Source of the DNA: Candidatus Omnitrophota bacterium
GTDB taxonomy: Bacteria; Omnitrophota; Gorgyraeia; B26-G9
Assembly (NCBI GenBank): GCA_043814605.1
Contig: JBDRJV010000037.1
Location: forward strand, 31,899-95,898
Length of the DNA: 64,000 nucleotides
Reading direction: 5' to 3'
The notes under the pieces are model-generated. The model was not told where the DNA came from and did no database searches. It worked only from the letters and a program-made list of their open reading frames with translations. Positions 4,118 to 46,177 of this stretch are shown one piece after another; the stretch's first letter is position 1; every line of letters starts with the position of its first letter. The translations under genes were made by a program, and so were the position numbers.

Positions 4118-4118
4118 G

Positions 4119-20805: not shown

Positions 20806-20817
20806 ACACTTTTCATT

Positions 20818-22284: not shown

Positions 22285-22286
22285 TT

Positions 22287-23339: not shown

Positions 23340-23387
23340 CTTTTATTTGCAAAAGTAATAAAATTTATTTTTAAGGAGATTTTAGCT

Positions 23388-24746: not shown

Positions 24747-24779
24747 AGTTATTTGCGTAAAAAATATCAGGATAATATA

Positions 24780-26135: not shown

Positions 26136-26144
26136 GAATAGAAT

Positions 26145-27512: not shown

Positions 27513-28855
27513 TGGACGTAAGGCAAGTAAAAAGAAAAACTACAAGTTTGTGTAGTGTTTGTAAACAAATAATTCCGGCGGAGGTTTTTACAAAAAACAG
27601 AAAGGTATTTTTACGAAAAATATGCCAGGATCATGGAGAAATAGATGTTTTTTTAGGAGATGCTGATCTTTATGAACAGCTTGATGATTTTTATTTTAAA
27701 ATACGGTCTAATAAAAACAGCACGATAGCAAGTCCAGAGCTTATCGTTAATTTTAATTGTAATATGAATTGTCCGGTATGTTATTTAGGACACAATCGAA
27801 AATATTTGGAAAAATTTAATCCTTCGCTTGATGAAATTGATGTTTTTACTAAAAATACTAGTTATAAATCATTGGTTATTTCCGGAGCAGAGGCAACTTG
27901 CCGAAATGATTTATTTGAGATAATAAAAATTCTAAAAAAATACAGAAAAACTGTCAGCCTGAATACAAATGCCCTAAAGTTAGCAGATTATAAATATGTG
28001 GCTGGTCTTAAGAAGGCGGGGATTGACAGAGTTAATGTGCAATTTTCCGGATTTGATGCACAAGCGGAAAAATTTTTAAGAGGTGACAATTACATCGGCC
28101 AAAAAATAAAGGCCCTGAGGAATTTAAATAATTTAAATATTTCTATAGGGCTAAATTTATTGATTGCCGGGGGTTGCAATGAAAAACAGATGATTGAAGT
28201 TCTAAAAATGGTACCTCAATATGGATCCTTGCGGATGATTAATTTTAGTACGATGGTTTTTGCTGGAGGCGCTGAGAATTTCCCTCAAAAAAATTATTTA
28301 GTTGTTGACGATTTATTGAAAATAATTCAGGTTCAGACAAAGGGAATTATTAATCGGGAAGATATTTATATTTTTAAAAAACTAGAACTTGTAATTTCTT
28401 CATTTTTAAATAAATTTACATGTTTTTATCATCATGCTTTTTTAATCATTAGAAAAAAGAATGGTTATATGCCGATCAGTAATTTTTTAAATTTAAAAAA
28501 AACAGAGCTAATTTTAGAAAAATATAATAAAATATATCAAAATAGTAAATTTTTGGCTAAAATTTTTTTAATAATGAGCATGCCTTATTTATTATTTATA
28601 AATTGGAAAATATTAAAAATATTTAGCCAGATTTGGTTAATCTTATTTTCCTATTTTTTAAAACGTGGGCATTTTTTAAGACAAAGTAATTTAGTTTATT
28701 TACAATTTTGTGTTGAATGTGATAAATATCGCATTGATCATGATATATTTAAAAGTTGTACGTGTAAATCATTATTCTTTTTTGATAAAAGCGAAGATGG
28801 ATTTAGAAAAGTAAGTAAACCTGTTTTAAAGGATTACTGGATGTTATGGAAGTAA
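27512..28855 (+). CDS. Zinc-ribbon radical SAM enzyme, paralogue 4 of 6
   Basis: CSVC..CQDH, NCNMNCPVCY, ISGAEATCRND, FTCFY, VECD and KSC. The ATG at 27512 shares a base with the upstream stop (TGATG). Confidence 0.8.
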   Translation: MDVRQVKRKTTSLCSVCKQIIPAEVFTKNRKVFLRKICQDHGEIDVFLGDADLYEQLDDFYFKIRSNKNSTIASPELIVNFNCNMNCPVCYLGHNRKYLEKFNPSLDEIDVFTKNTSYKSLVISGAEATCRNDLFEIIKILKKYRKTVSLNTNALKLADYKYVAGLKKAGIDRVNVQFSGFDAQAEKFLRGDNYIGQKIKALRNLNNLNISIGLNLLIAGGCNEKQMIEVLKMVPQYGSLRMINFSTMVFAGGAENFPQKNYLVVDDLLKIIQVQTKGIINREDIYIFKKLELVISSFLNKFTCFYHHAFLIIRKKNGYMPISNFLNLKKTELILEKYNKIYQNSKFLAKIFLIMSMPYLLFINWKILKIFSQIWLILFSYFLKRGHFLRQSNLVYLQFCVECDKYRIDHDIFKSCTCKSLFFFDKSEDGFRKVSKPVLKDYWMLWK

Positions 28856-28859
28856 GAAT

Positions 28860-30458
28860 ATGCAACTAAAAAATGATATTAAGAAAATAGTATTAGTCCG
28901 TGCTCCGAAACATATGTGGCCATGGGTTAATGAATCAGACAATTTTCTATTACCATTAGGTTTACCGATTCTTGCTGCTGCAATAAGAAATCAATTTAAA
29001 AATAAAATTGAAGTAAAAATTATTGATTGTCCTCCGTTAAAGATTGGATGGGAAAGTTTAGAACAGATATTAAAGGAAGAGAAAGCGGATGTTATCGGAG
29101 CGGGAGAGGAAGCATTATATCATCATGAGGCCATAAGACTTTTTGAAATATCTAAAAGAATTAACCCTAATGTGATCAATATCGCCGGCGGACATTATTT
29201 TTCCTGGATGGTTAAAGATAGCTTGAAAAATCATCCCATTGATATTATTGTTAAATTTGAAGGAGAGCAGACAATTGTAGATTTGATTGATGCGCTAAAA
29301 CAAAGGCGGGATTTAAACTCTGTCCCGGGAATAGCTTTTAAGAAAAACAGCCAAATTATTGAAACTCAAGCTCGGCCAATTATTCAAAATCTTGATGAGC
29401 TGCCTATCCCTGCCTATGATTTAATGCCCATGCGTAAATATGGTGATAGAGCCATTTTTTGGCCGGAAAGTGCCACGATTGAAGGCAGCCGGGGGTGTAT
29501 AGATACTTGCAGTTATTGCTCATTATGGACATTTTGGGGGAAACACAATAACTCGGGATGCCGAGAAGATAAAATTAAGGCAACGCCTTTTTTTCGGCAA
29601 AAAAGTATTGATCATGTAATGCAGGAAATAGAGATTCTTTATGAAAAATATAATCGCCGATTGCTTTTATGGGCAGATCCGACTTTTAATGTTAATCCGG
29701 AGTGGACAGATAAACTTTGTGATGAAATATTAAGGAGAAATTACAAGTTAGAACATTGGGTATTTTTGCGTACTGATTATGCTTTAAGAGATGAAAAAAC
29801 CGGACTCTTAGCAAAAATGGTGCGTGCTGGTATTGTACATCCACTTTTTGGTGTAGAAAGATCTCATGCTGATGAGTGGAATAAGTTAGGAAAACATGGA
29901 TATAAAAGAGATGAGATTAAAGAGTTATTTCATATAATGAGAGATAAATATCCGCAAATTTTCCGGCAGGCAACTTTTATTACATGTTTACCTTTTGATG
30001 ATGAAAAATCAATGATGAATTTAGCTAAATATGCGGTTGAAATTGATTGTGATTTTCCGGTTTTGCATCCAGCGACGCCTGTACCGGGAACATACCTTTA
30101 TGAAGAGGTGATCAAAAATAATTTTCTTGAAGAAAAAGATCTTAAAGAAGCTTATTGGGAGTATCCATTACTAAAGAATATTCATGGATTATCCAGAACA
30201 GAGCAGGCTCGTTTAAATAGAAAAGCACAATTATATTGCATCCTAATGAATTTTAAAACTATGTTCAAAGGTATTTTCTCAAAATATCCGAGTAAAAGAT
30301 TTCGTTACCGTGAAGTATTAAGAGTTTTAATTTTAAAATCGTTTCAAATGTTTTCTTTGAAGGTTAAAGAATTATTTAATAAACCAACCGATTTAGAAAA
30401 GAAAATTCCTCAGTCGCTATTTTTTATTATGGAAAAGCCTAAGTGGTATGATAAATAG
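28860..30458 (+). CDS. B12-binding-domain radical SAM enzyme (subfamily B)
   Basis: N-terminal Rossmann-like domain (VIGAGEEALYHHE..NIAGGHYFS..IIVKFEGEQT), the LPIPAYDLMP motif and the radical SAM motif EGSRGCIDTCSYCSLW. Confidence 0.8.
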   Translation: MQLKNDIKKIVLVRAPKHMWPWVNESDNFLLPLGLPILAAAIRNQFKNKIEVKIIDCPPLKIGWESLEQILKEEKADVIGAGEEALYHHEAIRLFEISKRINPNVINIAGGHYFSWMVKDSLKNHPIDIIVKFEGEQTIVDLIDALKQRRDLNSVPGIAFKKNSQIIETQARPIIQNLDELPIPAYDLMPMRKYGDRAIFWPESATIEGSRGCIDTCSYCSLWTFWGKHNNSGCREDKIKATPFFRQKSIDHVMQEIEILYEKYNRRLLLWADPTFNVNPEWTDKLCDEILRRNYKLEHWVFLRTDYALRDEKTGLLAKMVRAGIVHPLFGVERSHADEWNKLGKHGYKRDEIKELFHIMRDKYPQIFRQATFITCLPFDDEKSMMNLAKYAVEIDCDFPVLHPATPVPGTYLYEEVIKNNFLEEKDLKEAYWEYPLLKNIHGLSRTEQARLNRKAQLYCILMNFKTMFKGIFSKYPSKRFRYREVLRVLILKSFQMFSLKVKELFNKPTDLEKKIPQSLFFIMEKPKWYDK

Positions 30459-31851
30459 AAATTATTGCAAAAACGGGAACAATAAAAATAATATTATTCG
30501 CAAGACTACAAGCAGATGTGTTGTTTGTTCACAACCAGTTGATGCATCGCTTATTAAAGTTTTGGATAAAGTATTTTTAGAAAAATTTTGTCCGGTACAT
30601 GGAAGTTTTTGTCTGCTGATTTCTGAACATGCAGATGAATATATGGATTTAGAAAAATTTTATTTTAATGTTAGCGAAAATAATCTTAATTTTTGGGCCT
30701 TAGAAGTAGATTTAACATTTGAATGTAATATGGAATGTCCAATTTGTGCTTGGGGTGAGGATGTGGGAATAGGCAAGACTAATAATCAGCCTGTAATGGA
30801 TGAAATAAAGCGGCTGTTAATTAAAACTAAAGCAAAAGTTATTAGATTCTCAGGAGGAGAGCCTACTTGTAGGAATGATTTGTTTGATATTATTAAAATG
30901 GCAAAAAAGTTAAATAAAAAAATTATTTTAAATACAAATGGTTTGAAATTAGCTAATTTTGAATATGTAAAAAAGTTAAAACAGAGCGGAGTTGATTGTG
31001 TTAATTTAACTTTTGATGGTTTTAATATAGAATTTGAAAGAAACATGAGAGGAAATAATTATTTAGAACCGAAACTTAAGGCGCTAGAAAATTTAAATAG
31101 TCTTTGTTTACCAACAGGATTAAATATTAGGGTTGTCCCAGAGGGGAATGAAGCTGAAATACCTAAAATTATTGATTTGGCTAAAAACAATAAAAATATT
31201 AAACTGCTTAGTTTCGGAACAGTTGGCTATTTGGGACATGCACAGAAGCGGAACATTAAAAAATACTTAATGCCAGATCAATTAGTAGATATTGTTGTTG
31301 AGAATGCCTGTGGTTTAATTTCTCGAGAAAGTATTCGATTATTTCAAAAGTTTTTTATTACGGTTAATTCTTTTTTTACGCAGCGTTGGTGTTTCTATGA
31401 TTCTGCAGCAATTATTTTAGTGCGGGATAAAGATAGTTTGGTTACATTGGATAAATATATTGATCTGCATGATTTAGAAAAGATTTTAGATAATTACGCG
31501 GATAAGTATAAACATAATAAAATATTAGCTAAAATATGTTTATTATTGGGTGGGATTAAAGTTTTTTTTAAGATAAAAAATTTAAGAGTAATAAAAGAAA
31601 TTGTTTTCAGAGGAATTAGTTTTTTTATGCAGAAAAAAAAATACTTAAACTCACAATTATTAATTTATGTAAGTATTAATACTAGTTGTGATCGGTATAA
31701 AATGGATGATATGATTGCTAAAAATTGTATTTTTTCAATGGCCTTTAAAGATGAAAACAATAAACTAAGCATTAAAGGCAGCGGTGCTTTTATTTGTGAT
31801 AAAATTTCTAGTTCAAGTAATAAGAATCAGTTAAAATTTATGGGCATTTAA
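30448..31851 (+). CDS. Zinc-ribbon radical SAM enzyme, paralogue 5 of 6 (divergent)
   Basis: CVVC..CPVH, ECNMECPICA, FSGGEPTCRND, RWCFY, TSCD and KNC. It overlaps the upstream gene by 11 nt. Confidence 0.75.
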   Translation: MINRNYCKNGNNKNNIIRKTTSRCVVCSQPVDASLIKVLDKVFLEKFCPVHGSFCLLISEHADEYMDLEKFYFNVSENNLNFWALEVDLTFECNMECPICAWGEDVGIGKTNNQPVMDEIKRLLIKTKAKVIRFSGGEPTCRNDLFDIIKMAKKLNKKIILNTNGLKLANFEYVKKLKQSGVDCVNLTFDGFNIEFERNMRGNNYLEPKLKALENLNSLCLPTGLNIRVVPEGNEAEIPKIIDLAKNNKNIKLLSFGTVGYLGHAQKRNIKKYLMPDQLVDIVVENACGLISRESIRLFQKFFITVNSFFTQRWCFYDSAAIILVRDKDSLVTLDKYIDLHDLEKILDNYADKYKHNKILAKICLLLGGIKVFFKIKNLRVIKEIVFRGISFFMQKKKYLNSQLLIYVSINTSCDRYKMDDMIAKNCIFSMAFKDENNKLSIKGSGAFICDKISSSSNKNQLKFMGI

Positions 31852-31865
31852 AAAGAGGAAAACTA

Positions 31866-32933
31866 ATGTTAAAAACGATTCAACATTCATTTCCGCTAAT
31901 CGGTAATGCTGAGAAAAATGCTCTCAATAAGGTGTTAAATACGAGCTTTCTGGCTCAAGGCAGAGAAGTTGAGAAGTTTGAAAAAGGTGTATCCGAATAT
32001 GTTGGATGTTTTCATGCCCAAGCTGTTAATTCGGGTACAGCAGCTTTGCATTTGGCGCTATTAGCTTTAGACATTAAAGCTGGGGATGAGGTAATTATAC
32101 CTAACTATGTGTGTCGGTCAGTATTAAACGCTGTGCAATATGCTAGAGCACGGCCGGTCTTATGTGATGTGGATAAACGCACATTTAACATATTACCAGC
32201 AGCTCTTAAGTCAAAAATTAATAAAAGAGCAAAAGCTGTAATTGTAGCGCATATGTTTGGCTTTCCGGCTCAGATGGATGAATTAAAAAAAATAAGAATC
32301 CCGATTATTGAAGATTGCGCACAAAGTATCGGAGCTGATTTTAAAGGAAAACTTGTGGGTAGTTTTGGAGATTTATCTATTTTTTCATTTGAAGGGACAA
32401 AAACAATTACTACCGGAGAAGGAGGTATGATTTTAACTAATTCCCAGAAATTATCAAATAAAATTACTAGATTTAAAGAGCCTTATGAGAAAGATCAAAT
32501 GCCTAAATATACATTTCGAATGAGTGATTTACAGGCAGCCATTGGCAGAGTTCAGTTAAAAAAATTACCCGGTTTTATTTTTAGAAGAAGAAAAATTGCA
32601 CAAATTTATAGAAAAGCATTTAAAAATTTAAAGGTTGATTTACCATTTGAAAATGATAATATGATTCATTCTTATCATCGATTTATAATTAGTCTAAAAA
32701 AGAAAAATCAAATAAATAAAGTCATTAATTATTGTCAAAAAAAAAGGGTAATGGTGAAAAGGCCGATTAAACATTATGCGCTTAACCAATATTTAGGCAT
32801 ATCAAATAAATTATTTCCGAATACGGATTTTATAATGAAACATTGTATTTCGATCCCCATATATCCAGCTTTAAGCGAAGCAGAAATTATGAGAATAATT
32901 AAAGTAGTTAAAGACGGGGTAAGTCAGTTGTGA
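31866..32933 (+). CDS. DegT/DnrJ/EryC1-family PLP-dependent sugar aminotransferase
   Basis: AVNSGTAALHLALLALDIKAGDEVIIPNY, IIEDCAQSIGADFKGKLVGSFGDLSIFSFEGTKTIT and GEGGMILTN are present, along with FRMSDLQAAIGRVQLKKL. Confidence 0.85.
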   Translation: MLKTIQHSFPLIGNAEKNALNKVLNTSFLAQGREVEKFEKGVSEYVGCFHAQAVNSGTAALHLALLALDIKAGDEVIIPNYVCRSVLNAVQYARARPVLCDVDKRTFNILPAALKSKINKRAKAVIVAHMFGFPAQMDELKKIRIPIIEDCAQSIGADFKGKLVGSFGDLSIFSFEGTKTITTGEGGMILTNSQKLSNKITRFKEPYEKDQMPKYTFRMSDLQAAIGRVQLKKLPGFIFRRRKIAQIYRKAFKNLKVDLPFENDNMIHSYHRFIISLKKKNQINKVINYCQKKRVMVKRPIKHYALNQYLGISNKLFPNTDFIMKHCISIPIYPALSEAEIMRIIKVVKDGVSQL

Positions 32934-33895
32934 ATATAAAATATGATTTTAGAAATGAACGGGAAAAGAATTTTCCTTTGATGCTTAATTTGGAAATAAC
33001 TAATATCTGTAATTATCAATGTATACATTGTCCTTATCCAAGTATTTCTCAAAGAAAAGATTATACCCCTAAGTTTATGTCCTGGGAAATTTTTAAGAAA
33101 ATAGCTGATCAAACTGCTAATTATCCTGAGACAATTTTTAGATTTGTTTGTGATGGGGAACCAATGATGCACCCAGATTTTTTAAGAATGGTTGAATATG
33201 TTAAAAACTTAAAAATCAGTCCGGTTTGTTTTACTACTAACGGATATTTTTTAACCCCGGAGGTTTCTCGTAAAATAGTTGAATTTGGTTGTGACCTTAT
33301 CGAAATAAGTTTAGATGCTTTTTCAGAGTATAGTTATAATAAAATCCGCCGGGGTGGAAATTATCATAAAGTTATTGATAACCTTAATTATCTTATCCAG
33401 TCAAAAAATGAACTATCTGCAAAGAGTTCAAAGATTATGGTTAGTATTATAGATCAGCCTTTAGTTAAAAATGAGATAACTACATTTAAGAATTTTTGGC
33501 AGGATAAGGTAGATTATGTGATTACAAGAGTATTAACGAGTGCGGGCGGGTTTATTAAGGAATCTATTCGAGATAATAAAACTGATGTGGAAATACGATG
33601 GCCTTGTCCTTTATTATGGCGGAGATTGTTTATTAATGTAGATGGTTGGGCTGAATATTGTGTGGATGATTGGTTAGATCAATCGATTTTAGGTGATGTA
33701 AATAAAGAGAGTATTGCCTCTATCTGGGGAGGCCAAAAATATCGAGATTTAAGAAAAAATCACATAAATAATAATTTTAGTTACAATGAAAAGTGTGCAC
33801 AATGTCAGGATTGGAGAGCCAGAACCTGGGAAAATGATTATTTTCATGCAATAGAGAGGATTTTTAATTTAAATTTTAAAAATGAGAATTATTGA
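32930..33895 (+). CDS. Radical SAM enzyme with SPASM-like C-terminus
   Basis: GTG start overlapping the upstream stop. LEITNICNYQCIHCPYP and CDGEPMMHPD are present. C-terminal cysteines occur in WPCPLLW..INVDGWAEYCVDDW and CAQCQDW. Confidence 0.8.
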   Translation: MNIKYDFRNEREKNFPLMLNLEITNICNYQCIHCPYPSISQRKDYTPKFMSWEIFKKIADQTANYPETIFRFVCDGEPMMHPDFLRMVEYVKNLKISPVCFTTNGYFLTPEVSRKIVEFGCDLIEISLDAFSEYSYNKIRRGGNYHKVIDNLNYLIQSKNELSAKSSKIMVSIIDQPLVKNEITTFKNFWQDKVDYVITRVLTSAGGFIKESIRDNKTDVEIRWPCPLLWRRLFINVDGWAEYCVDDWLDQSILGDVNKESIASIWGGQKYRDLRKNHINNNFSYNEKCAQCQDWRARTWENDYFHAIERIFNLNFKNENY

Positions 33896-35222
33896 TAGTA
33901 CAAAAAGCTTATGTCCGGTTTGTTTACAATGGATTGATTCTGCGGTAGTTACAAAAGATGACCATAAAGTATATTTAGAAAAAAAATGTCCGGAACATAA
34001 AGGAAGTTTGGTGTTTCTTTCTCCGGATGCAGAAGGATTTATTGTTTTAAGAGATTTCTACTTTCAAACTCATCAAAAAATATTTCCCCAAACTCGCTAC
34101 CTTTGTTTTTTAACCCCTAAGTGCAACCTTTCTTGTCCAATTTGTTTTTTGGATTCAGGAATGCAGGATAAAGAAGATATTAATAGGAAAGACTTAGTTA
34201 GGTTTTTGAATAATGGCAAAAAAGAAATAATTATTTTTGGAGCAGAGCCAACTTGCCGTAAAGATATTTTTGAAATAATCAGTTTTCTTAAAAAAAAGCA
34301 GCATTCGGTGAGTCTATACACTAATGGGATAAAATTAGTTGATTATAAATATGCGGAGAAGATTAAGCAAACAAAAGTAAACAAAATATATTTTCAATTT
34401 GATGGTTTTGATGATTCTATTTATGAGGTTTTACGTAAAGTAAAGCTCAAAGATCTCAAGATTAAGGCATTAGATAATTTAAAAAAAATTAATATGCCTG
34501 TGGTTTTAGATGTTGCCTTAGCCAGAGATGTTAATATTAACCAAATGGGATCTATTTTTGAATACGCTCTGAATAACAATTTTATTAAAACAATAAACTA
34601 TATCGCTTATGTGCGTTCTGGTGGAGGAGGAAAATATCTAGCGAATCAAGCAATTATGCCGGATGAATTAATAGACGAAATAAGTAAAGCTACAAAAATG
34701 AGAATAAACAGAGTTAATATGAGAATTTTTCAGAAGTTATTATATGTGTATATGTCAACTTTAAAGAAAAGAACATGTTTTTATATTAAATATTTTTGGG
34801 TTTTCCGCACAGAAAATAACCAGTATTTAACATTTGATCAAATAATTAATTTTGATATGCTAGAAAAAATATTAAATAAGTATGTATTATTAGTAAAAAA
34901 ACAAAATCAGATAATTGCTAGTATGTATTTAGTACTGAAACTTCCTTTTTTACTTTTTTCTATAAAAAACAATAAAGCTTTTTTTCAAATGCTGAAAATG
35001 ATTTTTTCGCATGTTTTTAATCGGGGAGATTATTCTTGCGTTAGGGGTGAGTTTTTACAACTAATATTTACTACTGCCTGTGATGTGGATAAGGCAGATT
35101 TGAAGATTTCGCAGCGTTGTCATGTGGGCATGATGTATAAAAATAAACAAGAAAAATTAGAAGTTTTTAATGAAAATGGTATGTATTTATTAAATCAGGA
35201 AATTCAGAAGAAAGGTGTTTAG
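33882..35222 (+). CDS. Zinc-ribbon radical SAM enzyme, paralogue 6 of 6 (divergent)
   Basis: CPVC..CPEH, PKCNLSCPICF, FGAEPTCRKD, RTCFY, TACD and QRC. It overlaps the upstream gene by 14 nt. Confidence 0.75.
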   Translation: MRIIDSTKSLCPVCLQWIDSAVVTKDDHKVYLEKKCPEHKGSLVFLSPDAEGFIVLRDFYFQTHQKIFPQTRYLCFLTPKCNLSCPICFLDSGMQDKEDINRKDLVRFLNNGKKEIIIFGAEPTCRKDIFEIISFLKKKQHSVSLYTNGIKLVDYKYAEKIKQTKVNKIYFQFDGFDDSIYEVLRKVKLKDLKIKALDNLKKINMPVVLDVALARDVNINQMGSIFEYALNNNFIKTINYIAYVRSGGGGKYLANQAIMPDELIDEISKATKMRINRVNMRIFQKLLYVYMSTLKKRTCFYIKYFWVFRTENNQYLTFDQIINFDMLEKILNKYVLLVKKQNQIIASMYLVLKLPFLLFSIKNNKAFFQMLKMIFSHVFNRGDYSCVRGEFLQLIFTTACDVDKADLKISQRCHVGMMYKNKQEKLEVFNENGMYLLNQEIQKKGV

Positions 35223-35227
35223 CTAAA

Positions 35228-36715
35228 ATGCGGATTGGATTTATTTATTCTGAAATGGAAACACTGGGTATCCAATATTTATCTAGTTTTTTAAAACAAA
35301 ATGGATATACAACCAAGCTTTTTTTTGATCCGCAATTATTTGCAGATACAATTTCTCAGAGCAAGTCTTTAAACAAGGTCTTTGACTATAAAAAACAATT
35401 ATTCAAGCAGATAGAAGCATTTAAGCCGGATTTTTTAGCATTTTCTGTTTTAAGTACTAACTACCATTGGGCATTTAAATTTACAAAAGAAATAAAAGCA
35501 AGGTTGAACATTCCTATTGTTTGGGGGGGGGTTCATCCTACTTTAGACCCGGAATCTGTTTTAAAACTTGATTGTGTGGATTATATAATAGCGGGAGAAG
35601 CAGAAGAAGCATTGCTTGAGTTTGTTAATAAATTTAAGAATAAGAATTCTCTGAGTAAATTGAGAAATGTATATACAAAGGTTAATGGAAAAATTATAAA
35701 AAATTTATTAAGGCCATTAATAAATAATTTAGATCAATTACCTTTTCCGGATAAAGATATATTTTATGACATTATGCCATATTTAAAAGATCATTATACA
35801 ATTGTAACGGGAAGAGGATGTCCGCATGCGTGTACTTTTTGTTGCAATCACAGTTTAAGGAAAATAAATGAGCAAAATAGTGGGAAAAATAATTTTTTAA
35901 GACGTAGATCAGCAGACAATGTGGTTACTGAATTAAAGCAAGCTAAAGAAAAATATCATATCAAAGATGTTTTTTTTGAGGATAGTACTTTTACTTACGA
36001 TAAAAAGTGGTTGAAGGAATTTGCAATCTTGTACCATGATTCAATTAATTTGAATTGCTTTTGCTGGGTTCATCCGGCTGAAATTGATGAGGAAGTAGTA
36101 GGATACTTAAGATTAATGAATTGCCGTGCTGTTGAAATGGGAGTAGAAAGTATAAACTCAGAGATTAGGGCCAAATGGTTAGGGCGTAACTATCCCAATG
36201 AGAAGATTGAAAACGCATTAAAATTATTAAAGAAAAATAAGATTTTTTGCATCACAGATAATATTATCGGATTACCCGAAGAAGAAATAAAAGATTTAGA
36301 AAATTTAGTAGATTTTTATAATAAATTACGGCCTGAAAAAATTTATATATTTGAACTAAGAATGTTTCCAAATACTCAGATGCATGAATTGTATCATGAT
36401 TATCAAGACAGCTTTAAAGAAAACAATGATGGATTGTCCCCGTTTACGTTATCTTCTTCACAGAACAAAATGGCGAAAAAAATTATTGTTTTAATTTTAG
36501 CGATACAATTTTTGCCTAAAAAAGTAATCAATTTTTTATTAAAAAATAAGTTATACAAGTTTTTCCCCGCTATAAATTTATATAATCTTTTAGAAATTAC
36601 GCCTTTTTTCTTGAATTTATTCAAAAGAGAAAAACTTTGGTTTCCCATTCGCGGAACAAGAAAAAGGTATTTATTTTTTGCTAAAAAGATGATTATAAAT
36701 TTTATTAAACGTTAA
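35228..36715 (+). CDS. B12-binding-domain radical SAM enzyme (subfamily A), contains a G9 tract
   Basis: MRIGFIYSEMETLGIQYLSSFLKQNGYTTKLFFDPQLF, VWGGVHPT, LPFPDKDIF, VTGRGCPHACTFCCNH and FLPKKVINFLLKNKLY. WGG is encoded by tgg ggg ggg g. Confidence 0.8.
   Translation: MRIGFIYSEMETLGIQYLSSFLKQNGYTTKLFFDPQLFADTISQSKSLNKVFDYKKQLFKQIEAFKPDFLAFSVLSTNYHWAFKFTKEIKARLNIPIVWGGVHPTLDPESVLKLDCVDYIIAGEAEEALLEFVNKFKNKNSLSKLRNVYTKVNGKIIKNLLRPLINNLDQLPFPDKDIFYDIMPYLKDHYTIVTGRGCPHACTFCCNHSLRKINEQNSGKNNFLRRRSADNVVTELKQAKEKYHIKDVFFEDSTFTYDKKWLKEFAILYHDSINLNCFCWVHPAEIDEEVVGYLRLMNCRAVEMGVESINSEIRAKWLGRNYPNEKIENALKLLKKNKIFCITDNIIGLPEEEIKDLENLVDFYNKLRPEKIYIFELRMFPNTQMHELYHDYQDSFKENNDGLSPFTLSSSQNKMAKKIIVLILAIQFLPKKVINFLLKNKLYKFFPAINLYNLLEITPFFLNLFKREKLWFPIRGTRKRYLFFAKKMIINFIKR
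35523..35531 (+). repeat. G9 homopolymeric tract inside a coding sequence
   Basis: Nine consecutive G at 35523-35531 (tt ggggggggg tt) encode W-G-G-V of the B12-radical SAM gene. It is the longest G/C run I found in the window. Confidence 0.9.
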
Positions 36716-36738
36716 GTAGTGATCAGTAAGGATAAATA

Positions 36739-38199
36739 ATGAAAGTTGCTTTTATTAGCTGCTCTAATGAAAGTTTAGGGATCGAATATTTATCAGCGTA
36801 TTTAAAACAGCAGGGACATAAAACTAGAGTTTTTATTGATCCCCAATTATTTAATGATGAACATTTAGATGTTCCTTTGGCTGCAAAAATTTTTAGTTAC
36901 CAAAAAAACCTAGTGAAAAAGGTCATTGATTATAATCCGGATTTAATCGGATTTTCTGTAGTTAGCGATTTTTATCATTGGGCTTGTGATTTAGCCCGAG
37001 AATTTAAAAAACATCTAAATGTACCGATAATTTTTGGCGGTATCCATGCGAGTTCTGTCCCGGAAGAAGTGATTAAAAATAAATTTGTAGATATGGTTTG
37101 CATTGGTGAAGGGGAAGAAGCTTTAGCTGAGGTTGTTAATCGATTAGAAAATAGACAAAATCCGGTTGATGTTTTGAATGTTTGGGCAAAAAAAGATGGC
37201 AATATTATTAAAAATAAATTACGACCATTGATAAATGATTTAGATCATATCCCTTATCCAGATAAGAAAATATATTATGATACAAGCTTTCATTTTCAAA
37301 TAGGTTATTATACAATAGCCAGCCGAGGTTGTCTTTATACTTGTACATATTGTCATCACTCATTTTTGAGAACAATTTATCCTCATTCTGATTATTATCG
37401 TGTTCGTAGTGTAGGCAATATCATAGAAGAATTATCCATTAATTTTGATAAAAAAAAACATAAAGTTATCCGTTTTTCCGATGATATTTTCCCTTTTAAA
37501 GAAGAGTGGTTAAAGGAATTTGCAGATAAATTTAAGGCGCGTATAAATGCTCCGTTTATTTGTTATATTCATCCGGACACTATTAATCCAGAAAATATTG
37601 ATTTATTAAAAAAAAGCGGATGCGTGGAAGTACAATTAGGAATCCAGACTCTCTATGAGCAGACTCAGAAAAAAATACTAAACAGAAATATTTCTCAAAA
37701 AAGATGGCAGGAAGTATTTTTATTGCTTTATAATGCAAACATTAAAATTACAGCAGAAAATATATTAGGTATTCCCAATCAGGAAATTTGTGAAATTGAA
37801 GATTTAATTAGGTTTTACTGTTATAATAAAGCTGATCGAATTCAGGTTTTTTGGCTTAAATTTTATCCTAAAACAAAAATTAAAGAGTTTATTAACCAAA
37901 TTGACAAAAATACGCAAGTGGATAACTCAAATAAAGAGAAAACTTTTACACAAGGCGGTGATATTTTTACAAAGGAACTTGCCAAATTAAGAATTATTTT
38001 TTGTTTATTGCATTTTCTGCCCCCTAAAGTAATTGAATGGCTGCTTGCTAATAAAAGATATCAATCTTGTTTTTTAATCCCTTTATGGATTTTAAATTTA
38101 ATATCGAATTTTACGAGTAAAGTTGCTTCTGATAAAATCACACGCAAAAGGGAGTGGATGAAATACTTAATCTTTGTCCAGAGAAGGTTTATTCGGTAA
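36739..38199 (+). CDS. B12-binding-domain radical SAM enzyme (subfamily A), tandem paralogue
   Basis: MKVAFISCSNESLGIEYLSAYLKQQGHKTRVFIDPQLF, IFGGIHAS, IPYPDKKIY, ASRGCLYTCTYCHHS and FLPPKVIEWLLANKRY. Confidence 0.8.
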   Translation: MKVAFISCSNESLGIEYLSAYLKQQGHKTRVFIDPQLFNDEHLDVPLAAKIFSYQKNLVKKVIDYNPDLIGFSVVSDFYHWACDLAREFKKHLNVPIIFGGIHASSVPEEVIKNKFVDMVCIGEGEEALAEVVNRLENRQNPVDVLNVWAKKDGNIIKNKLRPLINDLDHIPYPDKKIYYDTSFHFQIGYYTIASRGCLYTCTYCHHSFLRTIYPHSDYYRVRSVGNIIEELSINFDKKKHKVIRFSDDIFPFKEEWLKEFADKFKARINAPFICYIHPDTINPENIDLLKKSGCVEVQLGIQTLYEQTQKKILNRNISQKRWQEVFLLLYNANIKITAENILGIPNQEICEIEDLIRFYCYNKADRIQVFWLKFYPKTKIKEFINQIDKNTQVDNSNKEKTFTQGGDIFTKELAKLRIIFCLLHFLPPKVIEWLLANKRYQSCFLIPLWILNLISNFTSKVASDKITRKREWMKYLIFVQRRFIR

Positions 38200-38918
38200 T
38201 GGTAGTTGATGAAATATCTTTAATTGTCCCTGTTTATAATGAGCAGGAATTAATTCAAGAAACAGTAGAAATATTTTTAACAGATTTATCAAATATCTGT
38301 AAAAATTATGAATTGATTATAGTTGATGATGCGAGCACAGATGAGACAGCAGAGATTTTAAAGAATCTGAAATCTAAATATCAACACCGGTTAATAGTTA
38401 TTACAAATGAGAAAAATATAGGTGGTGGCCGGAGTTTAATTAAGGGCTTTCACGCGGCTAGATATTCGCTTGTGGCAACAAACTTTGCGGATAGGCCATT
38501 TAATTTATTAGAACTTAAAAATATATTACCAAAATTTTTAAAGAATATTGATTTTATCGTTGTGGTCCGTAAAAATAGGTCCGCTAACAGTGTTTACCGT
38601 AAAATTACTTCTCTGATTAATTATTATTTAATTCGGCTGCTTTTTAATATAAAAGTTAAGGATTTCCAATTTGTCCAGATTTATAAAAGAGAAATATTAC
38701 AATCGATAAGCGTAGATTCCCACAGAACTTTTGTGCCCCCGGAAATTATTATTAGGCTGCTTTTGAATAATTACATTATGGATGAATATGAAGCCGATTT
38801 TTATCCGAGGACAAAAGGGATGGCTAAGTGCGGAAATCCGCGGATAATTTTAAGGGCAATTTATGATATGTTTTCTTTCTGGGTAAATTTAAATTTATTG
38901 AAAAAATATAGGGATTAA
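38199..38918 (+). CDS. GT2 polyprenol-phosphate glycosyltransferase-like (DPM1/ArnC/GtrB-like)
   Basis: ISLIVPVYNEQELIQETVE..LIIVDDASTDETAEIL and YYLIRLLFNIKVKDFQFVQIYKREIL. The track ORF starts at 38154, but ATG 38199 (TAATG junction) is preferred. Confidence 0.7.
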   Translation: MVVDEISLIVPVYNEQELIQETVEIFLTDLSNICKNYELIIVDDASTDETAEILKNLKSKYQHRLIVITNEKNIGGGRSLIKGFHAARYSLVATNFADRPFNLLELKNILPKFLKNIDFIVVVRKNRSANSVYRKITSLINYYLIRLLFNIKVKDFQFVQIYKREILQSISVDSHRTFVPPEIIIRLLLNNYIMDEYEADFYPRTKGMAKCGNPRIILRAIYDMFSFWVNLNLLKKYRD

Positions 38919-38924
38919 AGAATC

Positions 38925-40139
38925 ATGCAGGCTAATCATAAATTAAAACCAGCTATTGCAGGGGGGAAACCCGTAAGGAAAAAAATGCTGCCTTTGCATC
39001 AATCTGATTTTTCTCAAGCAGAAGAAAAAGCGGTAATAAAAGTTTTGCGCTCGGGATGGCTGACTAAGGGGCCGCAAACAAAAACACTCGAAGAAAAATT
39101 TACTAAATTTGTTAAAGCCAAATATGCTATTGGGACAAATTCTGGGACAAGTGCATTACATCTTGCTTTGAGTTGTTTAGATTTAAAAAAAGGTGATGAG
39201 ATTATAGTTTCTCCGCTGACTTTTGTCTCTGCGATTAATTCAATTATTCATTGTAATTGCAAACCTGTATTTGTTGATGTTGATCCCCTAACTTTAAATA
39301 TTGATCCCGAGCAGATTGAATCTAAAATCAATATGAGAACTAAATGTATAATGCCCGTACATTTATATGGACAAGCATGTGTGATGAATAAAATTTTAAG
39401 AATAGCTAAAAAAAATAAAATATTTGTAATCAGTGATGCGGCGCATGCTTTAGAAACAGTATATAACCGGAAAAAAATCGGCTCGATCGGGGATATCACT
39501 TGTTTTAGTTTTCATCCGGCTAAAAATATTACTTCTGGGGAAGGAGGAATGCTGGTAACAAATAATAAAAAGTTTGCACAAAAAGCTCAAATGTTAAGTT
39601 TGCATGGTATAGATAAAAGTACTTGGACCAGATACACTCAAGATAGATTTCAGCATTGGACAACAATCGCGCCGGGGTTTAAATATCACATGACTGATCT
39701 GCAAGCTGCAATTGGTTTAGCCCAATTAGAAAAAATCAAAAAATTTTGGCAAAAAAGAAAAAAATACACAAAAATGTATTTATCTGCTTTTAAAGATATT
39801 CCTCAAATAAGAGTGATTACAAAAATGTCATCACTAAAAAATAAAAATGCATATCATTTATTCATAATACAAATAGATACAAAAATGTTAAAAATTAATA
39901 GAGACTATATTTTAAATGCACTACTAGCTGAAAATATTGGGGTAGGGGTTCATTATCGTGCAATTCATTTACACAGTTTTTATAAGAACCATTTTAGTTT
40001 TAAAAAAGGAATGCTGCCTCAGGCTGAGTATGCAGCAGAGAGAATAATTACTTTACCCTTATATCCAAAAATGAAACAAAGTGATATTAGTGATGTTATT
40101 GATGCAGTGAGCAAGGTTATAACCTATTATAAAAAGTAG
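38925..40139 (+). CDS. DegT/DnrJ/EryC1-family PLP-dependent sugar aminotransferase (ArnB/PglE-like)
   Basis: VLRSGWLTKGPQTKTLEEKF, GTNSGTSALHLALSCLDLKKGDEIIVSPLTF, SDAAHALE..GDITCFSFHPAKNITSGEGGMLVTN and YHMTDLQAAIGLAQLEKI. Confidence 0.85.
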   Translation: MQANHKLKPAIAGGKPVRKKMLPLHQSDFSQAEEKAVIKVLRSGWLTKGPQTKTLEEKFTKFVKAKYAIGTNSGTSALHLALSCLDLKKGDEIIVSPLTFVSAINSIIHCNCKPVFVDVDPLTLNIDPEQIESKINMRTKCIMPVHLYGQACVMNKILRIAKKNKIFVISDAAHALETVYNRKKIGSIGDITCFSFHPAKNITSGEGGMLVTNNKKFAQKAQMLSLHGIDKSTWTRYTQDRFQHWTTIAPGFKYHMTDLQAAIGLAQLEKIKKFWQKRKKYTKMYLSAFKDIPQIRVITKMSSLKNKNAYHLFIIQIDTKMLKINRDYILNALLAENIGVGVHYRAIHLHSFYKNHFSFKKGMLPQAEYAAERIITLPLYPKMKQSDISDVIDAVSKVITYYKK

Positions 40140-40166
40140 TTATTAAATTGTTGCATATTTATAAGT

Positions 40167-41591
40167 ATGATGAAAAAAAGAATATTATTGATAAATCCAA
40201 ATTATACTTACTTTCCCGGTTGGTTATCAACGGCGGTTAATTATAAAGGCCTGTCTTTAGGACTAGCTTATATTGCGGGATTTTTAAGAAAACAGAATAA
40301 TGTCAAGGTGCGGATTTTTGATGCAGTTATTTTAAATGCTACAATTAAAGATATCATTTTAGATATAAAAAAATTCAATCCGGATATTATAGGGATTACG
40401 ACAACGACAATTACAATAAATGGTGCCAGACAAATTGCTCAAGCAGCAAAAAAAATATTAAAAGATATTATTATTGTTTTGGGAGGGCCACATGTTAGTG
40501 CGTTACCTTTTGAGAATTTAGATGTTGCAAATTTTTGTGTAATAGGTGAAGGAGAAGTTACCTTTTCAGAATTAGTTACTGAGATTAATAATCAGAAAGC
40601 TTGGGATAATATAAAAGGGATTTCATTTAAAAAAAATGGAGAATTTGTAAAAACTCCATCACGTAATTTAATCGAAAATCTAGATTGTTTACCATTTCCG
40701 GCTAGAGATTTGTTACCTGAACATAAATTTATGCATATTTATCCTTATAGGTTAAATAATCCATATTATGAAAATTTAGTAACTTCTCGAGGATGTAACT
40801 TTAATTGTAATTTTTGCTTAAATGATTTAATGTGGCAAAAAAGAACGAGATATCGTAGTTTGAATAGTGTTTTTGAAGAAATAGATATCTTGGTAAAAAA
40901 TAAAAATACTTCGGTTTTGTTTTTTCAGGATGATAACTTTACATCGAACTTTGACAGGATTTATGAATTTTGCACAAAAAAAAGAATATATTTTCCAGAT
41001 TTAAAATGGATTTGTCATGCTCGGGTTGATTTTTTAACTTTGCCATTATTAAAAGAAATGGAGTCGGCCGGTTGTGTTGAGATTCAATTAGGCGTTGAAA
41101 GCGGTGAAAATAGCATACTGTCTGATTCTAATAAATCGTTTAAGAAAGAAAGCATCATAAAAGCGTTTAATTTTATAAGAAAAACTAAAATTAACAGCTG
41201 GGCAACAGTTATTATTGGGCATGAAAATGATACTAAGGCAACAGTTGAAGAAACAATTAAGTTTGTTAAAGCTATTGATCCAACTTATTGTACTTTTTTA
41301 TTTCTATCCCCTTTACCAGGGACAAAAACGTTTGCTGATTTTTCAAAAAAAAGATTTATTAAAACTTATGATTGGGATAAATATGGCTGGCATGGAGAGC
41401 CGGTTTTTGAAACTCATTTATTAAATAGAAAAATGTTGTTGAAATTAAGAAGGAAAGCTTACTGTGATTTCTATATTCGACCGAAAAATTTTTTAAAGTA
41501 TTTTCACATTCTATTTTATCGTAAGCAATTTAGTACAATTATAAATAATCTTCTAATCATGATCAAATTTATATTTAGCCCAGTAAAATAA
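40167..41591 (+). CDS. B12-binding-domain radical SAM enzyme (subfamily B)
   Basis: LLINPNY..LSLGLAYIAGFLRK, IIGITTTT, VLGGPHVSALP, LPFPARDLLPEHKF and VTSRGCNFNCNFCLND. Confidence 0.8.
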   Translation: MMKKRILLINPNYTYFPGWLSTAVNYKGLSLGLAYIAGFLRKQNNVKVRIFDAVILNATIKDIILDIKKFNPDIIGITTTTITINGARQIAQAAKKILKDIIIVLGGPHVSALPFENLDVANFCVIGEGEVTFSELVTEINNQKAWDNIKGISFKKNGEFVKTPSRNLIENLDCLPFPARDLLPEHKFMHIYPYRLNNPYYENLVTSRGCNFNCNFCLNDLMWQKRTRYRSLNSVFEEIDILVKNKNTSVLFFQDDNFTSNFDRIYEFCTKKRIYFPDLKWICHARVDFLTLPLLKEMESAGCVEIQLGVESGENSILSDSNKSFKKESIIKAFNFIRKTKINSWATVIIGHENDTKATVEETIKFVKAIDPTYCTFLFLSPLPGTKTFADFSKKRFIKTYDWDKYGWHGEPVFETHLLNRKMLLKLRRKAYCDFYIRPKNFLKYFHILFYRKQFSTIINNLLIMIKFIFSPVK

Positions 41592-41972
41592 TAAAAAAAT
41601 AATATCGTATAAAGCGATACTTATTAATTTTACCGCTAAAATTTTTCTACTATTGGTTAGAGGACTAATTATATTACTGTTGTTTCCAAAGAGAAAGATA
41701 GTATTGTAGATATTACTGGTTTATAAAATGATTCGAAAAAAATAACTAATCGATTAAGCTTAATAAAATGTAATTTTAATTATTTTAAAGGACTAACTAT
41801 TAGTTGATTGATAAGGTTGTTACGAATACCGAGACTAATATAATAAGCGATTTAAATTAATCGCCATGTCCTGTAGAAGGTATAATTAGTTTACGTAATT
41901 ATAATAATGTTGTGGTGAATTTTCAAGAAAATATTTTTCAATTAATATATACAATTCGGCGAGAGGATCTAG

Positions 41973-43166
41973 ATGTCTATTTCGAGAAGAAATTTTTTAA
42001 AAAATAGTTTAAAATTTTGTGCAGGAGTTGGATTATGCATCTTAACAAAAAGTTTCTGGGATAATTTTGAAAATACAGAAAGGATAGACAATTTTTTATT
42101 AAAAGAAGCAAAATATTATCGTAAAGGAAGTAACAATACTGTGCAATGCTTATTATGTGCCAGAAATTGTGTAATTAAGGATAAAAAAAGAGGGTTTTGC
42201 CAAGCCAGGATAAATAGTAAAGGTAAATTATTTAGTATGGTATACGGAAGTGTGATTATAACCCATTCAAAGGATAGACCGTTTAGGTCTTTGATTTATT
42301 TTGCTAATGATATTGAAGGGCTATGTATTGGTACAGCTGGATGTAATATGAGATGCAAGTTTTGTCTTGCCTCAGGAATTAGTCAGGTAAAACCTGAAGA
42401 TATTAAGATTAATAATAGATTTCCTTTTACTATGAATAAGAAACAAAATAAGACTCAGATTCTTCCAGATCAATTGATAAGCATGGCCAAAAAAAACAAT
42501 GTAAAATTAATTCATTTTAATCTTAATGAACCTACAATATATTATGAGTATATGCTAGATGTGGCAAAAATAGCGGTAAAAAATGGAATTTTTACAATGC
42601 TATGGAGCAATGCATATATAAATAGGGACCCTTTGCTTGAGTTAGCTCCTTATTTAGGCGGAGCGAGCATTGGATTGAAAGCTTTTAACAATGATATCTA
42701 TAAAAAGTTTTGCAGCGGAGAATTAAGTCCGGTTTTAGATACTTTAAAGTTGCTGAAAAAACAAAAAATTCCTTTTGAGATAATTTATCCAGTCATTCCG
42801 ACTGTTAATGATGATACTCAACAAATTAAAGATATGTGTTTTTGGATTAAAGATAAATTGGGTACGGAAGTGCCATTGCATTTTTATCGTTTCCTGCCTA
42901 GGTATAAATTAGTTAATTATCCTCCAACCCCTATCTCAACCTTGGAATCCATACAGAGTTTGGCTAAAAATACTGGTCTAAAATATGTATATGTTTTCTA
43001 TATGGGAGATTATCCTATCCCGGGCATGGAAGAAAAAATTTATTGTCCAAATTGTAAGAAATTAGTTTTATTACGTAAAAATTTAAATAATCTTGTAATA
43101 AATAATACGAAAAATTCCTGTTGTAAATTTTGCGGTGAAAAATTACTTTTTTTTATTTTTAAATAA
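41973..43166 (+). CDS. PflA/AmmeMemoRadiSam-like radical SAM enzyme with N-terminal twin-arginine signal and C-terminal zinc ribbon
   Basis: The N-terminus MSISRRNFLKNSLKFCAGVGLCIL carries the canonical S-R-R-x-F-L-K. AKYYRKGSNNTVQCLLCARNCVIKDKKRGFCQARINSKGKLF is the family-typical CxxCxxxC..G-x-C-x-x-R block. The radical SAM motif is GTAGCNMRCKFCLA. The C-terminus has CPNCKK..CCKFCGEKL. Confidence 0.7.
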   Translation: MSISRRNFLKNSLKFCAGVGLCILTKSFWDNFENTERIDNFLLKEAKYYRKGSNNTVQCLLCARNCVIKDKKRGFCQARINSKGKLFSMVYGSVIITHSKDRPFRSLIYFANDIEGLCIGTAGCNMRCKFCLASGISQVKPEDIKINNRFPFTMNKKQNKTQILPDQLISMAKKNNVKLIHFNLNEPTIYYEYMLDVAKIAVKNGIFTMLWSNAYINRDPLLELAPYLGGASIGLKAFNNDIYKKFCSGELSPVLDTLKLLKKQKIPFEIIYPVIPTVNDDTQQIKDMCFWIKDKLGTEVPLHFYRFLPRYKLVNYPPTPISTLESIQSLAKNTGLKYVYVFYMGDYPIPGMEEKIYCPNCKKLVLLRKNLNNLVINNTKNSCCKFCGEKLLFFIFK

Positions 43167-43234
43167 TCTAAATTATGGGAAAAATTTATTACTTAATACG
43201 ATTAAATAAAAAATTGAAAATTTATTAAAAATAT

Positions 43235-44644: not shown

Positions 44645-44659
44645 AAGGAATTAATTTAA

Positions 44660-46144: not shown

Positions 46145-46177
46145 ATATTAAATTGATCAAAGTATCAGGATAAAATT

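Follow-up and report, generated by a model that had tools for sequence, protein, structure and literature searches.

Results

A lone G9 tract in a radical SAM gene

The stretch of Omnitrophota DNA analysed here (the window, 64 kb) has a GC content of 29.5% and carries 51 densely packed ORFs on the + strand, none of them broken. One of these ORFs contains nine consecutive G residues in frame (Table 1). The codons across the tract, GTT TGG GGG GGG GTT CAT, encode V98 W99 G100 G101 V102 H103, and the run consists of the last two bases of TGG (W99), both glycine codons (GGG for G100 and for G101) and the first base of GTT (V102). A first-pass annotation, made from the letters of the window, had reported a G9 run at this place in a B12-radical SAM gene, and its coordinates, reading frame and gene class all agree with our sequence and Pfam analyses. 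A census of homopolymers gave G9 as the sole G/C run of seven or more in the 64 kb, with no second such tract even in the ~50-kb glycan cluster, and so upheld the further claim that the longest G/C run elsewhere is G6. Runs of G6 lie at 12023, 38961, 53455 and 55072 (the last in rsmH); the earlier list was right for 12023, 53455 and rsmH, and its entry at 38971 should read 38961. No run of six or more C was found in the window. Runs of A and T are plentiful, with 46 A8 runs, 31 T8 runs and more than 150 A/T runs of at least seven, whereas T runs of ten or more number 0 in the coding sequence against 5.8 expected.

Table 1. Coordinates of the tract, its gene and neighbouring features in the window
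Feature	Position	Strand	Basis or remark
Co-directional envelope-glycan cluster containing the tract gene	2511..53491	+	Pfam, synteny
Tract gene; product a predicted cobalamin-dependent (class B) radical SAM enzyme of 495 aa	35228..36715	+	Sequence, Pfam, AF2/Foldseek
B12-binding (Rossmann-like) domain, aa 7-132	35246..35623	+	Pfam PF02310, E 3.5e-18
G9 homopolymer	35523..35531	+	Window sequence; C9 on the - strand
TAG stop after -1 slip (G8)	35544..35546	+	Computed; product 105 aa, ends ...WGGFILL
TGA stop after +1 slip (G10)	35569..35571	+	Computed; product 114 aa, ends ...WGGGSSYFRPGICFKT
Radical SAM core, aa 192-363	35801..36316	+	Pfam PF04055, E 2e-21
Adjacent B12-radical SAM paralogue, 35% identity	36739..38199	+	Sequence, Pfam

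The protein encoded by the tract gene is identical to NCBI MFH1460433.1, from a Candidatus Omnitrophota MAG. Its radical SAM core contains the cluster motif C198-x3-C202-x2-C205 (RGCPHACTFCC), in which C198, C202 and C205 are invariant. G100, G101 and H103, at the tract, are invariant in 25 orthologues, and the two glycine codons are therefore obligatory. An AF2 model (pLDDT 83.5) places G100-G101 at the end of β-strand 97-101 in the Rossmann-like domain. When the model was compared with the PDB by Foldseek, the best matches were TsrM (6wtf), MgmA (9ccb), OxsB (5ul4), CysS (9n1b), TokK (7kdx) and AprD4 (6fd2), with E-values of 1e-18 to 1e-15 and TM-scores of 0.6-0.66. In these solved class B radical SAM enzymes, too, the B12-binding Rossmann domain is N-terminal and precedes a radical SAM barrel with CxxxCxxC, although sequence identity to them is only 14-18%. 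No NCBIfam model reached its cut-off, the best being HpnJ (99 bits against a cut-off of 578) and rSAM_ladder_B12 (98 against 360). The B12-binding domain with its GG element, the CxxxCxxC core and the modelled fold identify the product as a predicted class B radical SAM enzyme.

The tract gene lies in a cluster that is syntenic in other Omnitrophota and contains ~20 radical SAM genes, 9 of them of the B12 type. The other cluster genes include three DegT aminotransferases, GT2 and GT1 glycosyltransferases, PMT_2-type (GT-C) transferases, WbqC, a polysaccharide deacetylase and Wzy_C, and the dcw cluster (mraZ-rsmH-...-murE-murF) follows directly. This Pfam content bears out the surface-glycan neighbourhood proposed in the first-pass annotation. 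The downstream paralogue begins 24 nt past the stop codon of the tract gene, with an AAGGA Shine-Dalgarno-like site of its own; early termination of the tract gene could exert polarity on it. An Rfam scan of the window found no RNA family, promoter and terminator scans around the tract gene gave no sites above those in shuffled sequence, and neither mutS nor mutL was present among the window ORFs scanned against Pfam.

Since the gene is intact, it is currently in the ON frame. The tract lies within the first fifth of the gene, and the computed products of slippage (Table 1) accord with the earlier expectation that a slip of one base in either direction would truncate the 495-aa enzyme after about 100 aa. 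The radical SAM core lies downstream of the tract and is therefore lost after any +1 or -1 slip. The G9 tract thus has both the simple sequence repeat (SSR) length and the combination of one ON frame with truncated alternative frames that are looked for in a phase-variable locus.

The tract compared with chance expectation

Markov models of orders 1-3 predict 0.08-0.12 G9 words per window. Resampling of synonymous codons on the real proteins gave 0.16 runs of G9 or longer per window (P of any such run = 0.15), and for runs of G7 or longer 1 was observed against 1.9 expected by the same resampling. Given the residues W-G-G-V, a G9 run requires just GGG GGG, and for IVWGGVHP under the codon usage of the window the probability of G9 is 0.06. 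GGG makes up 23.7% of glycine codons, and GGG-GGG pairs encode 4 of the 59 GG dipeptides, matching expectation. The tract exceeds chance weakly, and chance alone should produce several such runs across a complete genome. Contingency loci are recognised by tracts that are commoner than chance, with several per genome; in the window there is one tract, at a frequency near that expected.

The motif was also examined in 140 family genes, taken from the matches listed in a profile search of genome contigs with the orthologue alignment, a set in which distant paralogues dominate. Runs of G8 or longer at the motif numbered 3 against 0.93 expected when the case that led to the search is counted; when it is left out (2 against ~0.9), the over-representation is not significant. 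Runs of G5-G7 were fewer than expected (17 against 29), and those of G8 or longer were not.

Orthologues and paralogues at the motif

Comparison of orthologues, which the first-pass annotation had set as a check, went against conservation of the tract: the run at this site is G2-G6 in six distinct syntenic orthologues, although at their 58-66% identity even real tracts are often not common to both genes of a pair. Two of them (L001 and L008) use GGA GGA and the other four have G4-G6, coded TTC GGG GGG ATA, TTT GGG GGG ATC, TTT GGG GGA and TGG GGA GGT. In L008, an Omnitrophota/PVC MAG, the neighbouring paralogue codes the same motif with a G8 run.

The tract gene departs from the family consensus in having W in place of F and V in place of I. 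Each of these changes lengthens the run, and together they take it from G6 to G9. Of 25 orthologues, 3 have the W flank and 1 has the V flank; among the 140 family genes the counts are 14 and 27. The window paralogues at 44660 (TTT GGC GGG ATC) and at 20818 and 36739 (both TTT GGC GGT ATC) have the codons that had been given for them and contain no run. They had been described as avoiding one, which over-reads the codons, as F and I flanks allow G6 at most.

Among 5.8 billion proteins, the nearest to the product of the tract gene is 66% identical. Exact look-ups of this protein, of P0001 and of the products of both neighbouring genes returned no other assembly of the same population on record, and a pattern search of metagenome contigs with 17-nt flanks and variable G length gave 0 matches.

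Frameshifts at the motif in other metagenomes

In three family genes from other metagenomes (L150, L172 and L162) the reading frame is disrupted only by one extra G, placed precisely at the tract. Without that G, the ORFs run to 563, 522 and 472 aa respectively. The 62.5 kb of family coding sequence yielded only one further frameshift, so that 3 of 4 frameshifts fall at tracts accounting for under 1% of the sequence. In-frame tracts at the motif were intact elsewhere in 46 of 47 cases for G7 and 11 of 13 for G8. One of the three OFF alleles adjoins pilin, GT2 and YfhO genes. Two of the three (L150 and L172) come from a single WGS project, PVBE01, and may be technical; L162 is from Ga0056137. 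The search pattern captured -1 variants only for W-type G8 tracts and caught +1 variants more easily; because of this bias, the direction of slippage (+1 in all three OFF alleles) is not interpretable.

Discussion

Comparison with known phase-variable systems

Poly-G tracts make lipooligosaccharide (LOS) glycosyltransferase genes phase-variable in Neisseria (lgtA, lgtC and lgtG), and similar loci exist in Haemophilus and Helicobacter. The Omnitrophota tract resembles these in being a homopolymer in the 5′ part of a glycan-modifying gene, where slippage would toggle one decoration. In those host-associated pathogens, however, the tracts are longer or experimentally variable, whereas here a tract in an environmental, uncultivated bacterium is known from its sequence alone. 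To our knowledge, homopolymer phase variation is documented almost solely in host-associated pathogens. A literature search on radical SAM clusters, mismatch repair and phase variation in Omnitrophota found nothing relevant.

The closest parallel is with Campylobacter. The tract shares with the switches of that genus an intragenic G9 in an AT-rich genome (~30% GC), a glycan-tailoring gene in a surface-polysaccharide cluster, an early stop on a slip of one base either way, and a radical SAM gene as target (PMC6321876; PMC8355987). In C. jejuni, tracts of G8 or longer switch at 1e-4 to 1.6e-3 per division (PMC6321876; PMC8355987), and the modal length of working Campylobacter switches is G9 (PMC8355987). 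The SSR length cut-off used for slipping G/C tracts is 7-8 or more, and phase-variable radical SAM genes with G9-10 are found in Campylobacter fetus (PMC6321876). The C. fetus enzymes fall in the SPASM/MoaA-like branch, in contrast to the B12-binding class of the tract gene. Campylobacter genomes also differ from the Omnitrophota window in having dozens of tracts, above chance (29 of G/C ≥7 in NCTC 11168), which vary between isolates in a genus without functional mismatch repair. The window has a single tract in its 64 kb, a frequency in line with chance, and unlike those of Campylobacter this tract falls on an invariant cofactor-domain motif.

Origin and behaviour of the tract

The best explanation, to which we give about an even chance of being right, is that the tract is a slippage-prone but incidental homopolymer, a mutational hot spot tolerated by selection. 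The G9 would be an in-frame by-product of coding the conserved W/F-G-G-I/V-H cobalamin-domain motif as TGG GGG GGG GTT. A G/C run of such length is intrinsically prone to slippage and would give rise to +1 and -1 frameshift alleles at a raised rate. These alleles would encode products of 105 or 114 aa that stop short of the radical SAM core, and the consequence would be loss of one of nine paralogous envelope-glycan tailoring enzymes. The existence of nine such paralogues would probably explain why selection tolerates the hot spot. We infer that slippage is raised in this organism, that the truncated product has lost its function and that the glycan is affected. A true contingency locus, in which selection keeps the G9 for reversible, high-frequency ON/OFF switching by slipped-strand mispairing, is possible but doubtful. 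It would create subpopulations that differ in one radical SAM glycan tailoring step, for example for phage escape or varied host contact. The G9 lies within the range of lengths that switch experimentally (PMC6321876; PMC8355987), yet it shows no excess over codon-usage expectation and is the lone G/C tract of seven or more in 64 kb. Its position early in the gene, with early stops both ways, and the company of Wzy_C, GT2, DegT and WbqC genes are as expected of a switch, and nine paralogues would make the loss of one viable; however, the run sits on an invariant functional motif and not on the dispensable glycine stretch that is typical. That both flanking substitutions extend the run, and that the adjacent paralogue in L008 has G8 at the same motif, argue for a switch, while the absence of the tract from all six syntenic orthologues compared argues against it. 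The phase-variable C. fetus radical SAM genes provide a precedent (PMC6321876). The three clean +1 OFF alleles at the same tract also count in favour of switching, although two share PVBE01 and may be technical, and the search favoured +1 over -1 variants. Maintenance of the tract by selection as a reversible switch is not demonstrable on present evidence.

The opposite reading, a chance tract held stable by efficient mismatch repair and without biological consequence, appears unlikely. It fits a chance expectation that is not small, a MAG consensus that is in frame, the mostly intact G7 and G8 tracts elsewhere, and the statement for PhasomeIt that mutation rates may be <1e-5 for tracts close to the length cut-offs (PMC6321876). 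The clustering of family-gene frameshifts at the tract speaks against inertness. So does the general dependence of indel rates on run length. Homopolymers are also a known source of error, and the sequence is a MAG consensus. An artefact, such as two-colour poly-G or a miscalled homopolymer length, is very improbable: the length is exactly that which preserves the frame, translation of the flanks gives the conserved PIVWGGVHPT in alignment with the orthologues, and the family accepts both W and V at the flanking positions. All 51 ORFs on the + strand are unbroken despite the many A8 and T8 runs, and for this reason a homopolymer assembly error is unlikely; the artefact was rejected on the reading frame, on conservation of the translated motif and on the uninterrupted genes around it. 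Programmed recoding, by ribosomal frameshifting or transcriptional slippage yielding a second protein, deserves next to no credence. Transcriptional slippage can occur at long homopolymers, mostly A/T runs, but here the two shifted frames close after 5 or 14 codons and give no extended product, and the window has no Rfam element; this candidate was rejected on the early stops.

Implications

A broader proposal sees in poly-G at the Gly-Gly motif a slipped-strand switch that is kept by selection and recurs among B12-radical SAM glycan-tailoring genes in uncultivated bacteria; it is improbable, though not negligibly so. The G8 of L008, the 11 in-frame G8 tracts elsewhere, the three +1 OFF alleles and the flank substitutions are consistent with it. 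If this recurrent switch were real, the locus studied here would be the first contingency locus described in Omnitrophota. Switching at the tract would extend homopolymer phase variation to an environmental candidate phylum and add cobalamin-dependent radical SAM tailoring enzymes to its targets. These cells, which are very small and may be attached to a host, would then be able to vary their envelope glycan stochastically, and a run of at least G8 over the GG motif of the B12 domain would serve as a simple marker for mining metagenomes for variable surface chemistry.

If there is no switching, the tract is an ordinary result of coding Trp-Gly-Gly-Val with GGG codons, and a caution: even in an AT-rich window, a single G9 is no statistical exception when codon structure is allowed for. 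Some observations nevertheless count against an incidental origin. G9 stands out somewhat in a coding sequence otherwise depleted in long homopolymers, the W and V flanks are both run-lengthening, and the deficit of G5-G7 runs at the motif is not accompanied by a deficit of G8 or longer. In addition, the length is the modal one for Campylobacter switches, and multi-paralogue glycan-tailoring genes are a classic target class.

The G9 tract and the encoded enzyme

The tract consists of exactly nine G residues within an open reading frame of 495 amino acids, and is read as GTT TGG GGG GGG GTT CAT (V98-W99-G100-G101-V102-H103). Its presence in a B12-radical SAM gene, encoding W-G-G-V, had been reported in the first-pass annotation and is borne out by the sequence, the reading frame and the codons. 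In the 64-kb window (29.5% GC), a homopolymer census found this single G9 run, four G6 runs and no C runs of 6 or longer. Three of the G6 runs (12023, 53455 and the one in rsmH) had been correctly placed; the other, given as 38971, lies at 38961. Apart from this coordinate the remaining observations were accurate, and reading the codons of the three closest paralogues confirmed that they write FGGI with GGC GGG or GGC GGT.

The encoded protein has the same sequence as MFH1460433.1, annotated as 'MAG: radical SAM protein [Candidatus Omnitrophota bacterium]', and contains the Pfam domains B12-binding (aa 7–132) and Radical_SAM (aa 192–363). An AlphaFold2 model made with 25 orthologues as input (pLDDT 83.5, pTM 0.86) gave its best PDB matches with the cobalamin-dependent radical SAM enzymes TsrM, MgmA, OxsB, CysS, AprD4 and TokK (E 1e-18 to 1e-15, identity 14–18%), and no NCBIfam model came near its cut-off with the protein. 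The product therefore belongs to the class B radical SAM enzymes, within an uncharacterised subfamily. All 25 orthologues share G100, G101, H103 and the cluster cysteines C198, C202 and C205. In the model G100-G101 forms the end of beta-strand 97–101 of the Rossmann-like domain; in the cobalamin-binding signature, this pair corresponds to the GG element.

A slip of one nucleotide had been predicted to truncate the enzyme after about 100 amino acids. The computed products are 105 amino acids for a −1 slip (G8) and 114 for a +1 slip (G10), in agreement with that prediction, and both are without part of the B12 domain and without the entire radical SAM core.

Positions of the tract, related runs and neighbouring genes (window coordinates unless a locus is named)
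Feature	Locus	Position	Strand	Detail
G9 tract	window	35523–35531	+	
Tract gene	window	35228–36715	+	
Stop codon after −1 slip	window	35544–35546		TAG
Stop codon after +1 slip	window	35569–35571		TGA
G6 runs	window	12023, 38961, 53455, 55072		
A10 run	window	4138–4147		longest homopolymer of the window
PMT_2-type transferase gene	window	4119–5555		
Dense radical SAM cluster	window	2511–48833	+	about 20 genes
B12-binding radical SAM paralogues	window	10787, 20818, 28860, 35228, 36739, 40167, 43235, 44660, 47388	+	nine genes
HMPTM-zinc-ribbon, Tes/TrsS-like radical SAM	window	22287?, 23388, 24753, 26145, 27509, 30448, 33882	+	6–7 genes
SPASM-type radical SAM	window	2511, 32930	+	
Further radical SAM gene	window	46178	+	
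AmmeMemoRadiSam-type radical SAM gene	window	41973–43166	+	
G8 at GG motif of paralogue	L008	11777–11784		
G9 in asparagine-synthase-like ORF	L079	8288–8296		
ORF with B12-binding domain only	L004	5039–6082		347 aa
Frameshifted metagenome gene	L150	970 (oriented)	−	G9, in-frame length G8; one G removed gives a 563-aa ORF
Frameshifted metagenome gene	L172	989		G8, in-frame length G7; one G removed gives a 522-aa ORF
Frameshifted metagenome gene	L162	5671		G9, in-frame length G8; one G removed gives a 472-aa ORF

Expected frequency of G runs

Markov models of order 1–3 predict 0.08–0.12 G9 words per window. A stricter expectation was obtained by codon resampling, in which the real proteins were kept and each codon was redrawn from the window's own usage (GGG is 23.7% of Gly codons). 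Expected numbers per window were 4.2 for G6 (4 observed), 1.3 for G7 (0 observed), 0.45 for G8 (0 observed) and 0.16 for G9 or more (1 observed), and a window had a probability of 0.15 of containing any run of G9 or more. Given the residues IVWGGVHP, the probability of G9 is 0.06, the sole need being that GGG is used twice. Several runs of this type are expected without any selection in a genome of a few megabases. In the window genes, resampling predicted 5.8 runs of T10 or longer and 3.6 of A10 or longer, against 0 and 1 observed. Long A/T runs are depleted, not enriched, in these genes, and the lack of T10 runs therefore indicates that long homopolymers are not generally tolerated there.

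Orthologues and the wider family

The nearest relatives of the protein are only 58–66% identical, and a set of 5.8 billion proteins contained none above 66%. No match was obtained in an exact-protein look-up of the tract gene and two neighbours in the assembly collection, or in a pattern search for the tract flanks with variable G length. At the site of the tract, syntenic orthologue loci read TTC GGG GGG ATA (L002) and TTT GGG GGG ATC (L007), both G6, TTT GGG GGA (L005, G5), TGG GGA GGT (L004, G4), and GGA GGA with no G run (L001 and L008). The orthologue comparison called for in the first-pass annotation thus went against a conserved tract, with G9 absent and from no run to G6 at the site, in proteins whose identity places them at an uninformative distance. 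By this distribution, the G9 tract is specific to the window's lineage.

Besides GGG GGG, the tract includes two residue differences from the consensus, F to W and I to V, found in 3 and 1 of the 25 orthologues respectively. Both add G residues, a coincidence that hints, more than any other internal feature, at selection for length. A survey of 140 B12-radical-SAM genes from fetched loci found W in 14 and V in 27, showing both to be accepted residues. At the GG motif, three of these genes carried G8 or longer (0.93 expected), the ascertained case being counted, and 17 carried G5–G7 (29 expected). The genes with G8 or longer are the tract gene, one gene in the fetched locus L041, and an intact gene in L008 (Omnitrophota/PVC MAG GCA_024231215.1). 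This last gene is a paralogue that directly follows the orthologue, and its G8 lies in the same GG motif, ATC TGG GGG GGG ATA (I-W-G-G-I).

A further fetched locus with a B12-radical-SAM homologue (L079, 37% GC) contains a G9 in an intact asparagine-synthase-like ORF of 597 amino acids, where TGG GGA GGG GGG GGG CCC encodes WGGGGP.

Frameshifted alleles in metagenomes

Metagenome contigs were scanned with the pattern TGGGGGGGN{0,4}RTNCAYCCNAC, which admits in-frame and out-of-frame lengths and matched at least 120 loci. The matches listed included 62 family homologues, with 46 intact in-frame G7 tracts, 11 intact in-frame G8 tracts and no in-frame G9 tracts. Three genes among the matches listed (L150, L172 and L162) had their only frameshift precisely at the tract; in L150, ten other A/T runs of 6–8 nt were all intact. 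Among the matches listed, the coding sequence of the family (62.5 kb) showed only one other frameshift. The scan shows that the motif-embedded tract is where genes of this family break. The frameshifted alleles belong to other organisms, and the pattern is better at catching +1 than −1 variants. Two of the three alleles share the WGS project PVBE01, so they may have a technical cause. The L162 gene is flanked by genes for a pilin-like protein, a TPR protein, a GT2-methyltransferase fusion, a YfhO-like protein and another GT2.

Comparison with contingency loci

The first-pass annotation proposed a slipped-strand phase-variation switch. Mechanistically this would be a classical poly-G contingency locus and, if real, would add to a known kind. 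In Campylobacter jejuni, which is without functional mismatch repair, tracts of G8 or longer change phase at rates of 1e-4 to 1.6e-3 per division (PMC6321876, PMC8355987), settle at G9–G10 (PMC8355987) and are commoner than chance (PMC6321876). Two radical SAM genes with G9–10 belong to the core phasome of C. fetus (PMC6321876), and there is therefore a precedent for a phase-variable radical SAM gene. Of the features that define such a locus, which also include length polymorphism and repair status or switching rate, the present tract has sufficient length and a reading frame that a slip would toggle. Neither an excess over chance nor conservation in relatives was found, the latter at an uninformative distance; we therefore did not file the tract as a contingency locus. 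That it works like one is a live possibility.

We consider the chances about even that the tract is an incidental in-frame homopolymer. Codon choice over the obligatory Gly-Gly motif would have produced the in-frame G9, and this physically slippage-prone run would now and then yield null alleles for a putative tailoring enzyme that is one of nine paralogues. A selected, reversible switch appears rather unlikely, and an effectively inert run somewhat more so. Artefact or recoding is very improbable, and programmed recoding at the tract was excluded because both shifted frames close at once.

Genomic context

All 51 long ORFs, and every real-looking ORF of at least 100 amino acids, are on the + strand, making the 64 kb one co-directional block. 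Strand asymmetry is strong over the whole window (G 11,312, C 7,592). From about 2.5 to 53.5 kb, the nine B12-radical-SAM paralogues and further radical SAM genes, which together form an exceptionally dense cluster, are interleaved with genes for three DegT aminotransferases, GT2, GT1, five PMT_2-type transferases, WbqC, polysaccharide deacetylase and Wzy_C. Matches of the HMPTM-zinc-ribbon genes to TrsS and Tes were sub-threshold. The dcw cluster mraZ-rsmH-ftsL-ftsI-murE-murF lies directly downstream. The core order (DegT, SPASM radical SAM, HMPTM radical SAM, two B12 radical SAM, GT2 and, farther along, Wzy_C, mraZ and rsmH) recurs in five other Omnitrophota/PVC assemblies (L002, L004, L005, L007 and L008). 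Given the cluster content and this conserved order, 'envelope-glycan tailoring enzyme' is a reasonable, though inferred, description of the tract gene product. The radical SAM cluster beside dcw is arguably a more unusual feature of the window than the tract, and a literature search turned up no paper on it.

The A10 run lies 19 nt into a PMT_2-type transferase gene, in the stretch encoding M-I-N-Q-L-K-Q-K-K-N. Another radical SAM protein scored above the NCBIfam cut-off for 'AmmeMemoRadiSam system radical SAM enzyme' (231 against 220 bits); the neighbouring genes that were scanned with Pfam included neither an AMMECR1 nor a Memo partner. In L004, a locus with no G/C runs of 7 or longer, the place taken by a full B12-radical-SAM gene in related loci has an ORF with only the B12-binding domain and, after it, a gap of about 540 nt; this ORF is possibly a pseudogene or a truncated paralogue.
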